A stretch of DNA of 21,329 nt. Source: a virus (taxonomy: Duplodnaviria > Heunggongvirae > Uroviricota > Caudoviricetes). A program made the position numbers and the translations under genes. A model generated the notes under the pieces. That model had not been told where the DNA came from and ran no database searches. It saw only the letters and a list, made by a program, of their open reading frames with translations. This document shows positions 14,651 through 21,329 of the stretch, piece by piece. Numbering within the stretch: position 1 is the stretch's first letter; each line of letters starts with the position of its first letter. The stretch lies in the IMG/VR virus record IMGVR_UViG_3300029610_000212. One strand, given 5' to 3'.

Positions 14651-15769
14651 TTAACCGAAGTAAGCCGGACCAGTTTTATCCTGTTGCTTCGATTTTTTTG
14701 CTGATTTTTGTGGTTTGTGAATATCCACCACCAGATTGCAGGTATAACTGAATCCGGCAGCGGTCAGTGAAAAGACCAGCGACTCAACCACCCAGGCTCT
14801 GTCTTCCCTGGTACCAAATCCTGAGGTTGCCACCCCTGCTTCTGCCGTCAGGGGAATATGCTGTGGTCGGCAGGGGCCGGTGAGCGTCATTTTCTGCTCA
14901 TTCCGTCTTGCCTGTGTTTTTCGTGCTTTCGCCTGCTTCTCTGCCGTATCCTTTTCTGACTGGGTATACGGGTTGGTCATTGCCGGTCCGTCATGTTCGA
15001 CCGCTGCGGTTTTTGTCCTGCCATCCACTTCATCGTAATAGCGAACCCCGATTTTCTCTTTTGCTTTACCCCCGCTTTCCGTGACTTTACCCGTGGAACT
15101 CCCCCGCTCACCTTCACTGTATGACCACGTTGTCACGTCTGCAGGCGTAATGGTGATACTGTCAATCTGTTTACCGGAAACTGTCGCTGTCGCCCCCTGT
15201 GGCAGAAAAAGCCAGTAACCACCGGAAGGTTTACTCACCGCGTTGTAGATGCGGGCAAGCCGGGACAGCAGGTTAGCATCAGATTCAGCCACCTGGTCGA
15301 TGTGGTTAATGTGAATATCTTTCAGCGCGGCAGCGACTCTGGGGATCAGGCCATTATCGGTGGCCACGGTTTTCACCACATCCTCCAGACGAATGTTATC
15401 CCAGCTTCGTGTTTTCTGACTGGTGACGTCACCGGGTTGCTTCCGGGCATTCATGGGCGCTGCGGTGGCATAAATTTCAATGCGCCTCGGTGGCCCACTG
15501 CTGGCAACTCCGCTGACAACAAACCAGCCTTTATCGACAAGCTGCTCATTAAATCCCAGCGCAACCTGTAGTCGCGCCCCTCTGGGCGGAAGTGTCAGCG
15601 TTTCAGAAAGCAGGGTAATCTTCAGTTCATCGGCTCTGGCGGTCGCGCCACCGTAATCTGTCAGCGTCAGTTCAGAAAGGCATTGCTCAATTATGCGGGT
15701 AATATCTTTCCCTTCTGCCTTTATGCGGAATGCTGGCGCATATTCAGGAGTCATCGTCTGAGAAACCAT
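14651..15769 (-). CDS. Phage tail protein D (P2 gpD-like, late control D / baseplate hub)
   Basis: The track ORF begins at a TTG (15802); I prefer the ATG at 15769 (MVSQTMTPEY...), 1 nt after the X stop. About 372 aa, following U and X as in P2-type and R-pyocin clusters. Confidence 0.75.
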   Translation of the reverse strand: MVSQTMTPEYAPAFRIKAEGKDITRIIEQCLSELTLTDYGGATARADELKITLLSETLTLPPRGARLQVALGFNEQLVDKGWFVVSGVASSGPPRRIEIYATAAPMNARKQPGDVTSQKTRSWDNIRLEDVVKTVATDNGLIPRVAAALKDIHINHIDQVAESDANLLSRLARIYNAVSKPSGGYWLFLPQGATATVSGKQIDSITITPADVTTWSYSEGERGSSTGKVTESGGKAKEKIGVRYYDEVDGRTKTAAVEHDGPAMTNPYTQSEKDTAEKQAKARKTQARRNEQKMTLTGPCRPQHIPLTAEAGVATSGFGTREDRAWVVESLVFSLTAAGFSYTCNLVVDIHKPQKSAKKSKQQDKTGPAYFG

Positions 15770-15770
15770 A

Positions 15771-15986
15771 TTAATCCCATAAGCTGAATGCAGACTCCAC
15801 AACCGGGATCACCCGTTCCGGCAGAATAACAGACAGACCGGAGGGATATACTGCGCCACGATCAGCCAGCCCGGGATTTGCCTCCAGAACCTGGATTATC
15901 GTGTCAGCGAGATTTTCGCTGCCATAGTGCGCGGCGCAAATCGCATCCAGCACATCACCGTCACGGGTTTGATATATCGTCGGCAT
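15771..15986 (-). CDS. Phage tail protein X (P2 gpX-like, small LysM-type protein)
   Basis: 71-aa ORF (P2 gpX is about 67 aa) between the U-like and D-like genes; ATG at 15986. Confidence 0.7.
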   Translation of the reverse strand: MPTIYQTRDGDVLDAICAAHYGSENLADTIIQVLEANPGLADRGAVYPSGLSVILPERVIPVVESAFSLWD

Positions 15987-16431
15987 AGTGTTTCAGTGTC
16001 ATTGTCCAGTTTTTATTACGGTGACCACCTCCCGGCAGGAACCGGTTAGTGGTGTCAGTAAAGTCAGTTACCACCCACCATCCCAGAACATCCCCTTCTC
16101 CACTGACCAGCTGCAGTGGCTTCGCCTGGTCGGCAAGAGCAAACAGGTCATTGACGGGGCCAACACCTTTTCGAAAAAAGGCATGGGATTCGCCTTGAAG
16201 TCTGACGGTACGCCCCGGCTTTCCGGTGTACTGGAGAAGATCCTGCTTACCAATGCGCTCCTGTTCGCTCCAGCGCCAGGTTGCTTCGCGGGTCAGCTGG
16301 TTATAGGCTGTCGTATCAATCGAAAAAGCAAAATCTCCCAGCATCATCATCACGCGGGCGGTTCCTGCCGAACGCAGGTTTTCAGCCTGTTGCTGACCAA
16401 ATTCATCAATAAAAGACATGAAATTACTCAC
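15961..16431 (-). CDS. Phage tail protein U (P2 gpU-like)
   Basis: 156-aa ORF immediately after the tape measure gene (ATGA-type overlap at 16428-16431); size and position fit gpU. Confidence 0.7.
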   Translation of the reverse strand: MSNFMSFIDEFGQQQAENLRSAGTARVMMMLGDFAFSIDTTAYNQLTREATWRWSEQERIGKQDLLQYTGKPGRTVRLQGESHAFFRKGVGPVNDLFALADQAKPLQLVSGEGDVLGWWVVTDFTDTTNRFLPGGGHRNKNWTMTLKHYADDISNP

Positions 16432-19305: not shown

Positions 19306-20775
19306 GCTGCCAGCATCTCCTCAAGCGCATAGTTATTATTCACCCGGACGCGCAGACTAATAAGTTCAGTCGGCGATTTCGGTCCAAAGTCATAGTTGAT
19401 ATACAGGACACCTGCCGCCATGCTCTCTGCGGTATTAAGTTCTTCATCCAGCCAGGCCCGACCGCCGAAGATGGCGCCCAGTCCGACCAGTTGTCGCATA
19501 TAGGCATTAATGGTGCCGATAATGTCATCGGCATTTTCGCGATCCAGCGGACGGTCAACATACTCCAGCATGGTTTCCTGAATGCTGTCCTCGATAACAT
19601 CTGCTGTACGTCGTACGGATTCAAAACGCCACTGCGGATCGGTTGCGCACAGACGGTTTCCCCAGTGTTTAAAGCCCGCACGACGGATAATGGTGGATAC
19701 GTTCTGCATGTTGAGCTGGTTCGCATCGCAGTTTTCATCCCCGAGAATAAATTCGTCGATCTGCTCCACTCCGAGGATATTGTTGATGTCCTGGTTCGAT
19801 TTACTCCACCACCAGCCCTTTTCGTAGTCGATACGGGCACGTAATCCGGCGGCAAAAGCAGAGTAAGGGCGATACACTAACTGGCCATCCGCATCGGCAG
19901 CCTGTACACGCGGTCGCAACAGTTNNNNNNNNNNNNNNNNNNNNNNNNNNNNNNNNNNNNNNNNNNNNNNNNNNNNNNNNNNNNNNNNNNNNNNNNNNNN
20001 NNNNNNCCGCGCGTAATTTCCCGGCCACCGTTTCCAGGGCTTTCCCGACCGCATCGTCCTCACTGAATCCCGGCGCAATCACAATACGTGGCTGATACGT
20101 GGTAATGGATTTTGCTGATGACAGAAGCCCAATCCCTTTCAGTATGGCTGCCCGTTTTTTTGCCCCGTCAGTTTCATCAGCCACCCGCACCACCACTGTC
20201 AGCGCATTACGCTGATCATTAATCTCTGTCAGCGCCTGTTTGAGAGTCCCCTTGTCTCCCAGACGATTAATGAGCGCGGTGCCCGCCACAGCCACAGGCG
20301 TATTTAACGGAAAAGGCTCATCTTCGCCCCCTTCCAGCTTTACACTGAACGTTGCCAACAGCCCCTCGCCACTGCCTTCGGCCTGAACTTTGACGCCATC
20401 CAGCGCATTGACCACACTGACCACATCAGCAGGTCGCGCCGTGATCACCCCCTGCTCATCACAGCCCAGTGTCACCGTCAGTTTGTGCGTAACGTCATCC
20501 CAGGATGCCGATGTGTTAACAGCCTGCGGGCTTTCCGTATCTGGTACCGCCGCCACCGCGTCCACCTGGATAACATTGCCAGCCCGGCCCCTCTCCTTTG
20601 CTGTGAAGTTCAGAACGTTATCCAGAATCGGCGTCCCGGTGGTGACCGCTGCCGCACTCCCGGCAGACGACTCCGGTGCCGTGCCCACCAGACCGATAAT
20701 AGCCGTCTGGATAGTGGTCACCGCCACAGTTCCCGAGGTCAGTTCAATTGTTTCAACACCATGTAACTGAGACAT
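19302..20775 (-). CDS. Phage contractile tail sheath protein (P2 FI / Mu gpL-like), interrupted by an 82-N run at 19925-20006
   Basis: Track ORFs 19801..20850 and 19302..20078 are the N- and C-terminal parts of one sheath-sized protein (about 490 aa) split by the N-run. Start taken at MSQLHGVETIELTSG (ATG 20775-20773, preceded by GGAGAAAGAC). Confidence 0.85.
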
Positions 20776-20791
20776 GTCTTTCTCCAGCCAT

Positions 20792-20813
20792 AAAAAAACC
20801 TGCCGCAGCAGGT
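20792..20813 (-). terminator. Intrinsic terminator between the spike-like gene and the sheath gene
   Basis: Minus strand reads ACCTGC-TGCG-GCAGGT (20813-20798) followed by TTTTTT (20797-20792). It starts at the last base of the upstream TGA and lies about 17 nt before the sheath ATG. Same TGCG loop as the 18754-18774 hairpin. Confidence 0.55.
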
Positions 20814-21329
20814 CACATTTTCTGATTAGGTTTATCCGTACTCCCGCCACTGTCGCCGGGGTGGTTGTGCTCGTTAAAGATGTTGCGGATCCCGCTCATA
20901 CTGCCGGTTTTGTCGGTAATTTCTGCAGAGGCACCAATATTACCCTTCACCGTCGTATCGGCGTTAATCTGCGTTTTCCCCTGTACAGTCAGGGTATCGG
21001 TGATTTCAACCGGACCATCAAGCGTACCCTTACCGGTGATTTTGTAAGTGCCTCCTTCGGTCAGGGTGATCGTCAGGGCATGAGCTGCCCGGTCATACCG
21101 GATCTCTGTGCCGTCGCTGTAACGGGTAATATGTTCGCTGTCGCTGCCCTCCGGCACGGGTAATTTCCCGGTGTTCCAGCCAGGAAACACCCGCCCGTTG
21201 TTTAACTCTCCGGCCTCCGACAACACTGTCACCGCATCACCGACGGCATAAGGATTCGAATCAGCCCGGTTTGCGCCAGAAAAACCCTGACACAGCGGCA
21301 GCCAGGTCGTGATGATATCGCCCAGATCA
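20813..21329 (-). CDS. Phage baseplate central spike, P2 gpV-like (5' end beyond the window)
   Basis: The frame is open from 20813 to the window end with no stop in 21233-21329; the track's start at 21232 is a GTG. The C-terminal region has beta-helix-like repeats and a terminal NEHNHPGDSGG motif, i.e. the HxH iron-binding apex signature of gpV-type spikes. Confidence 0.6.
   Translation of the reverse strand, partial: DLGDIITTWLPLCQGFSGANRADSNPYAVGDAVTVLSEAGELNNGRVFPGWNTGKLPVPEGSDSEHITRYSDGTEIRYDRAAHALTITLTEGGTYKITGKGTLDGPVEITDTLTVQGKTQINADTTVKGNIGASAEITDKTGSMSGIRNIFNEHNHPGDSGGSTDKPNQKM

Follow-up and report, generated by a model that had tools for sequence, protein, structure and literature searches.

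The 21,329-nucleotide (nt) stretch examined here, which we call the window, comes from the IMG/VR virus record IMGVR_UViG_3300029610_000212 (Caudoviricetes) and carries the genes of a P2-type contractile tail. From 10526 to the right-hand edge, all substantial open reading frames (ORFs) are minus-strand genes for contractile-tail proteins. Along the direction of transcription the genes are V, sheath, tube, E, tape measure, U, X, D, W, J, I, H, and G (Table 1). Identities were assigned from Pfam, and from PHROGs for the tape measure, and all thirteen calls were checked. By these Pfam and PHROG matches the P2-type contractile tail set is present, with homologues of sheath, tube, E, tape measure, U, X, D, W, J, and I. 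The gpD homologue has a Pfam Phage_GPD match of 29.5 bits, slightly below the cut-off of 30.1. Its likely start is the ATG at 15769 rather than the TTG at 15802, in line with the length of 372 amino acids (aa) called in relatives, and the fibre gene H likely starts at MAEYYS, at 12807. No head, lysis, or replication genes were found in the window, which stops inside V. The preliminary description of this DNA read the gene identities and their order as we do, and the Pfam and PHROG matches and the ORF map bear it out. The interval it gave, 14651-21329, covers D to V, but the module it described starts at 10526.

The sheath gene is seen as two ORFs in different frames because a run of 82 N stands for 78 nt. 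A real frameshift or pseudogene was considered and rejected, given this substitution and the unbroken 489-aa gene found in all relatives. A protein identical to the tube protein of the window is indexed in 323 blocks of a public assembly collection. Within E the −1 frame is already open, and it stays so up to the start of the tape measure gene (18339-18440 lies between the two genes). A GTTTTTA near the end of E (18488-18494, minus strand) has a T-run that is kept across relatives, with GGGTTTT in the Vibrionaceae forms; no canonical X XXY YYZ slippery heptamer was found. We regard GTTTTTA as a candidate −1 slip site, and the open frame is consistent with an E+E′ product.

The reading frame of the spike gene V runs open up to the window edge (20813-21328). 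The full-length protein of 205 aa was taken from a locus (L011) that is 100% identical to window 20007-21329. Residues 7-201 of its 205 align with P2 gpV (tblastn, 31% identity, E 1e-17) and with the crystal structure of P2 gpV (PDB 3QR8, E 6e-18); the R-pyocin spike is also matched (PDB 4S37, E 1e-9). In the 3QR8 alignment the apex motif NEHNHPGDSGGSTDKP lines up with P2 HTHKHPGDSGGTTGSP, the HxHPGDSGG apex included. The full-length protein scores above the gathering cut-off of Pfam Phage_base_V, the OB domain (28.0 versus 23.8), and its match to the Pfam GpV Apex family is sub-threshold (17.4 versus 20.8 bits). By these matches the truncated product is a genuine gpV-type spike with an OB domain, a beta-helix, and a histidine-containing C-terminal apex. 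The earlier gpV-type call for this product is upheld by the P2 gpV, 3QR8, and 4S37 matches and by the Phage_base_V score.

The same tail order was found, gene for gene, in Citrobacter phage Chris1 (ON041214), Hafnia phage yong2 (MZ516527), and a prophage of E. coli SC476. Chris1 and yong2 are unclassified Caudoviricetes, lambdoid myoviruses with lambdoid early and lysis genes, and they share with the copies of the window the order from the small terminase to the tail fibre assembly gene. The window V is 91% identical to that of Chris1 and 72% identical to that of yong2, and Chris1 shares 77-83% DNA identity with the window from the tape measure to V. The window has the order of this lineage from V through G together with its two hairpins, between V and sheath and after the tube gene; the head module and the Q late region of the lineage are found in near-identical copies, the window itself ending in V. 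The phages differ in what they carry beside the tail: Chris1 has its own invertible fibre segment, DNA invertase, and ars operon, and yong2 an acetyltransferase, whereas the window has a YadA-like adhesin and an IS3 remnant, a thrW site, and an E. coli-type background. The tail order is also present in eight chromosomes that encode a tube protein identical to that of the window. We take one of them, CU928158, to be E. fergusonii ATCC 35469.

Two surveys were seeded with an alignment of V proteins, and the loci were annotated by blastp against a reference gene set. Among 27 species-representative genomes, one locus was too short; 16 of the 26 informative loci have the order V-sheath-tube-E-T-U-X-D-W-J-I-H(-G), where T is the tape measure gene, and 10 have the canonical order with V ahead of W. 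The 16 loci belong to Citrobacter (four), Scandinavium (two), Rosenbergiella (two), two Enterobacteriaceae, and one each of Enterobacter, Pantoea, Rouxiella, Izhakiella, Tatumella, and Erwinia. A relative of V is encoded on 202 IMG/VR contigs; those with a V at least 86% identical were examined, and the V-sheath layout is present in all 80 retrieved. No paper discussing this layout was found in the literature, where Chris1 surfaced only as a citation. Judging by these loci, the tail order of the window is the fixed standard layout of a widespread, unnamed lineage of temperate enterobacterial phages. The preliminary description had called the organisation atypical, which holds only in relation to P2 and the pyocins; the order is invariant in a large lineage of phages and prophages that includes Chris1 and yong2. 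It had also allowed that the order might prove to be the standard layout of a well-known phage family, and in substance this is what we find, except that the lineage is unnamed and not famous.

The genes upstream of V were examined in the related loci. Every locus that reaches far enough has neck, capsid, portal, and terminase genes, including all eight chromosomes with the identical tube protein and the long-enough loci of the species and IMG/VR surveys. The head genes are ordered DUF1441 small terminase, GpA large terminase, gpW-like protein, lambda-B-type portal, ClpP-major capsid fusion, cement, and head-closure protein. A Neck1/tail-completion protein and then a conserved protein without known function directly precede V. 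L011 matches window 8798-19924 at 99.95% and 20007-21329 at 100%, and has the genes from terminase to neck upstream of V. An IMG/VR contig (L044/L125) is 99.4-99.9% identical to window 12020-21329, and upstream of the terminase it encodes an antirepressor (Bro/Ant), NinB, RusA, Phage_antitermQ (E 1e-53), a porin moron, lysozyme, Rz, and DUF1441. This arrangement is classical lambdoid late architecture. Together the near-identical copies (99.4-100%) have GpA terminase, Phage_portal_2, the ClpP-capsid fusion, Phage_attach, and Phage_antitermQ. The window very probably represents the right arm of a complete temperate myovirus with a lambdoid head and a P2 tail. The preliminary description had left prophage and tailocin undecided; the genes it missed are indeed absent from the window, but the near-identical copies settle the matter in favour of a complete lambdoid myovirus prophage.

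The tail proteins are shared with P2, which has homologues of V, FI, FII, E(+E′), T, U, X, D, W, J, I, H, and G. P2 arranges them in three activator-dependent operons (...X...R-S, V-W-J-I-H-G, and FI-FII-E-T-U-D), with X far upstream. The earlier contrast of the window, where V is separated from W, with P2, where V-W-J-I-H-G and FI-FII-E-T-U-D are separate operons, is correct. Phage phiCTX resembles P2, with R-S, V-W-J-I-H-G, a terminator, FI-FII-E-T-U-D, and X far upstream. Unlike P2, the window has a single contiguous block in which W-J-I-H-G follows D and X lies between U and D. The R2 pyocin of Pseudomonas aeruginosa has a P2-type tail with U-X-D, as the window does, and its spike PA0616 (the 4S37 protein) is a detectable homologue of V; the pyocin is tail-only with V beside W, whereas the window has V beside the sheath gene and a full head module in its near-identical copies. 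The pyocin order is reportedly V-W-J-I-H-chaperone-FI-FII-...-U-X-D.

The same hybrid genome also occurs with the canonical tail order. Vibrio phage Valp1 and two Serratia prophages (loci L024 and L026) have lambda-type packaging and head genes, Neck1, a protein of unknown function, V, and a P2-type tail with U-X-D, but in these the tail genes are ordered V-(PAAR)-W-J-I-H-G-sheath-tube-E-T-U-X-D. Relatives in Vibrio, Photobacterium, and Marinomonas have this order too. The Serratia prophages (S. proteamaculans and S. rubidaea) are the closest canonical-order relatives, with V 67-68% identical to that of the window; the other tail proteins of the intact S. proteamaculans locus are 55-72% identical to those of the window. 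Because the Serratia and Vibrionaceae relatives, P2, phiCTX, and the R-pyocin all keep the canonical order, the order of the window is most simply the derived one. The change looks like a block transposition of W-J-I-H-G to a place behind D, with the direction taken from outgroup comparison.

The window contains a terminator-like hairpin between the V stop codon and the ribosome-binding site (RBS) of the sheath gene and a second between tube and E, and both are kept in Chris1, yong2, and SC476. In yong2 the V/sheath stem has a compensatory change from T-A to C-G. Over 12 diverse loci, 95% of cells of the 7-bp stem are paired and three pairs are changed on both sides, with one covarying position showing CG, UA, and AU pairs; none of 500 shuffles matched the observed pairing or covariation score. 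The D/W junction, where the window has a weak hairpin, has a full hairpin and T-run in yong2, Rouxiella, and Rosenbergiella. In the canonical-order relatives a hairpin with a T-run lies directly 5′ of the sheath gene, after G in Serratia and after H in Valp1, and in the Serratia prophages, where W is next to V, a hairpin also follows V directly. We considered whether the hairpin is a feature specific to the detached V and rejected this, as it is found before the sheath gene in the canonical order and after V in Serratia. By this comparison the V/sheath hairpin is a lineage-wide junction feature, not a consequence of the detachment of V. The preliminary description had the spike gene ending in a strong terminator; the hairpin it saw is real, but its bearing on the layout was over-read, hairpins being present in the canonical-order relatives as well.

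Only about 25 nt, RBS included, separate the V/sheath hairpin from the sheath start codon, which leaves no room for a promoter downstream of the hairpin. Given the Q gene in a near-identical copy, the most economical model is that a Q-antiterminated polymerase reads through the hairpin. The tube/E hairpin may lower the expression of the low-copy downstream genes. Candidate roles for the hairpins are attenuation of transcription, insulation of the operon in the lysogen, and stabilisation of mRNA 3′ ends. In the Serratia loci, near-identical cassettes of hairpin, T-run, and RBS lie after V and before sheath (L026, 10612-10645 and 15102-15155; L024, 10618-10656).

Taken together, the window shows, with high confidence, the late tail genes and right end of a prophage: a temperate myovirus of the lambdoid/P2-tail lineage, integrated at thrW in an E. 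coli-type chromosome, in which the W-J-I-H-G block has moved. Several points weigh against this. The head, lysis, and replication genes of the window's own copy lie beyond its edge, and completeness is taken from the copies that are 99.4-100% identical. Decayed relatives exist, such as the E. coli SW071611 prophage, which is cut in the tube gene by IS1. Chris1 is known as a transmissible phage only from the title of a cited paper. Neighbour-joining trees of sheath, tube, V, D, and J (no bootstrap) move the Serratia loci from protein to protein, to a position basal to, or nested near, the Rouxiella/yong2 branch. The trees are compatible with the order of the window being derived, and prove neither the direction of the change nor a single origin.

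The window could instead be part of a tail-only element, either a domesticated R-type tailocin or a head-less prophage remnant, acting as a bacteriocin or inert. The missing head, lysis, and replication genes would fit this, as would the shortening of the related SW071611 prophage by IS1 and the IS3 remnant in the right arm of the prophage itself. Yet the R-type tailocin gene set, a tail without capsid, portal, and terminase, was found in no related locus that reaches upstream of V; each of these, L011 included, has neck, capsid, portal, and terminase. The copy that is 99.4-99.9% identical has Q, lysis, and nin genes, and all 13 tail ORFs of the window are intact save for the N-run artefact. 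A tailocin is very unlikely given the head, lysis, and Q genes of the copies that are 99.4-100% identical, and we think a tail-only element of either kind improbable. Still less probable is that the prophage belongs to the P2 family proper (Peduoviridae) and has had its tail region scrambled locally. All tail proteins are homologous to P2 tail proteins, and the fibre genes have 82-92% DNA identity to peduovirus fibre cassettes, but apart from Chris1 the DNA similarity to phage records is limited to this mobile cassette. The window does not have the Peduoviridae gene order (P2 and phiCTX compared). Neither P2-type capsid and packaging genes (Q, P, O, N, M, L) nor Ogr-dependent late promoters were found in the copies 99.4-100% identical; their head and packaging genes are lambda-type, and late control is by a Q antiterminator in place of the activator-dependent pO, pV, and pF promoters of P2. 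That the adjacency of V and sheath arose in assembly or scaffolding is an explanation we give almost no credence. There are two N-runs in the window, and the one in the sheath gene has the wrong length (82 versus 78 nt) and breaks the reading frame. The V/sheath junction (20776-20812), however, is on continuous sequence about 770 nt from that run, and the same junction and hairpin recur in more than 100 independent assemblies and two deposited phage genomes. We rejected an artefact on the grounds of the continuous sequence and the independent complete genomes, and retain the reading as a thrW-integrated prophage of the lambdoid/P2-tail lineage.

Table 1. Predicted features of the window, listed from V along the direction of transcription and followed by the remaining features.
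Feature	Position	Strand	Evidence and remarks
V, gpV-type central spike	20813-21329	-	C-terminal 171 codons; 205 aa in near-identical copies
Terminator-like hairpin, V/sheath	20797-20814	-	GACCTGC-tgcg-GCAGGTT + T7; 7-bp stem, 4-nt loop; between V stop and sheath RBS
Tail sheath, FI homologue	19302-20775	-	Pfam Phage_sheath_1 and Phage_sheath_1C; 489 aa in relatives
Tail tube, FII homologue	18799-19305	-	Pfam Phage_tube, E 5e-21
Second terminator-like hairpin, tube/E	18758-18775	-	GACGGCC-tgcg-GGCCGTT + T6
Tail assembly chaperone E	18441-18740	-	99 aa; Pfam Phage_TAC_7
Tape measure protein	16428-18338	-	636 aa; PHROG tape-measure families and place between E and U
gpU homologue, tail protein	15961-16431	-	Pfam Phage_P2_GpU, E 1e-30
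gpX homologue, tail protein X	15771-15986	-	Pfam Phage_tail_X, E 1e-16
gpD homologue, baseplate hub	14651-15769	-	372 aa; PHROG phrog_52 'tail protein', 9.5e-98
Weak GC hairpin, D/W junction	14631-14644	-	GCGCC-atcc-GGCGC; degenerate T-tract
gpW homologue, gp25-like baseplate wedge	14257-14610	-	Pfam GPW_gp25
gpJ homologue, baseplate wedge	13353-14273	-	Pfam Baseplate_J
gpI homologue	12800-13363	-	Pfam Tail_P2_I, E 7e-40
Tail fibre, H analogue	11110-12807	-	Pfam Phage_tail_fib, Phage_fiber_2, Collar; ORF called 11110-12900
Tail fibre assembly protein, G analogue	10526-11110	-	Pfam Caudo_TAP, E 9e-42
Cargo segment, fibre genes to attR	7799-10454		Low GC, 32-39%; IS3 remnant, adhesin, AT-rich spacer
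YadA-like trimeric autotransporter adhesin	8317-9609	-	430 aa; Pfam YadA head, stalk, anchor
IS3-family transposase (orfB) remnant	7667-8230	+	Pfam rve domains
attR (distal att repeat)	7540-7585		46-nt 3′ part of tRNA-Thr thrW; end of the integrated element
N-run	19925-20006		82 N inside the sheath gene, where L011 has 78 nt
N-run	1443-1452		10 N; sole cause of the split of ecpC into two ORFs

The left part of the window is host chromosome. Positions 1-6919 contain the E. coli core genes ecpC, ecpD, ecpE, ykgJ, and yagU and are 99.3% identical to many E. coli chromosomes. Positions 6899-7585 match a prophage-free E. coli chromosome at 99.85%; the match reaches from yagU through exactly the 3′-terminal 46 nt of thrW. 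Because the chromosomal homology stops there, we assign 7540-7585 as the distal att repeat of a prophage at thrW, the CP4-6 integration hotspot. In prophage-free E. coli 2017.09.02CC the stretch that matches 6920-7585 is annotated with a small hypothetical gene and a pseudogene of an integrase, and thrW comes next, intact. An ARAGORN scan of the window gave no intact tRNA, and it was BLAST that revealed the att copy. A megablast search of complete E. coli genomes returned no full-length copy of the prophage, only the relative cut by IS1 and a prophage about 82% identical. In the former (E. coli SW071611; L002, 27840-28822) the tail module is 98-99% identical and lies at ssrA rather than thrW. 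IS1 truncates it within tube, and sheath, V, and the head genes are deleted, which makes this prophage a true remnant, left with tail genes, of a phage of the same type.

Over the C-terminal part of the fibre and the assembly gene (window 10951-12020), identity falls to 82-88% in copies that match the window at 99.4% elsewhere. We read this segment as a swapped-in host-range cassette, because it diverges while sharing 83-92% identity with peduovirus fibre cassettes. In Chris1 and SC476 the same position is taken up by an invertase and inverted fibre genes. The cargo segment between the fibre genes and attR is missing from several prophage copies that are collinear elsewhere, which, with the IS3 remnant, suggests that cargo acquisition is associated with insertion sequences. 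The YadA-like adhesin has a distant similarity to EibD, a protein that binds immunoglobulins (E 1e-6). DNA of the cargo region is about 92% identical in about 190 E. coli genomes, with a YadA-like annotation among the matches listed, and in strain A17 a YadA-like gene is again at the fibre end, of a different prophage. The adhesin gene looks like a recurrent phage moron. Accessory genes were also seen in other copies. CP057104.1 (L005, 18196-19065) encodes a 289-aa Macro-domain protein between the tail fibre and assembly genes in an otherwise collinear copy, and L125 (5717-6814, minus strand) encodes a 365-aa general porin with the Q antiterminator on one side and the lysis genes on the other, which is the classical place for a moron in lambdoid phages.

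The lineage combines lambdoid early, nin, Q, and lysis genes and lambda-type packaging and head genes with a P2-type contractile tail. Its tail order is always neck/tail-completion, V, sheath, tube, E(E′), T, U, X, D, W, J, I, H, G. The W-J-I-H-G block would have moved behind D, with V kept beside the neck genes. As one consequence, the exchangeable fibre cassette now comes last in the late operon, beside the cargo and attR. The late genes may form one Q-antiterminated operon, transcribed through the V/sheath and tube/E hairpin and T-run elements.

The cassettes at the V/W and G/sheath junctions of Serratia place short repeats exactly at the rearrangement breakpoints. It is conceivable, though we think it rather unlikely, that hairpin cassettes at all block boundaries served as repeats for the exchange of W-J-I-H-G with sheath-to-D, or that they act as attenuators setting copy numbers. 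The exchange might, speculatively, have gone by a tandem duplication followed by two deletions. As attenuators, the hairpins could let a single operon driven by Q yield spike, sheath and tube, and the proteins encoded further down in very different amounts. If the hairpins did mediate the exchange, the lineage would be a clean natural case of module shuffling in a tail operon via regulatory hairpins.

For annotation, a V gene beside the sheath gene reliably marks the common, unnamed temperate phages of Enterobacterales that have a lambdoid head and a P2 tail, and should not be taken as a sign of a tailocin or of a novel injection system. Beyond annotation the finding matters little; the transposition of a block within one lineage, with hairpins kept at the junctions, would be a modest example of modular phage evolution.

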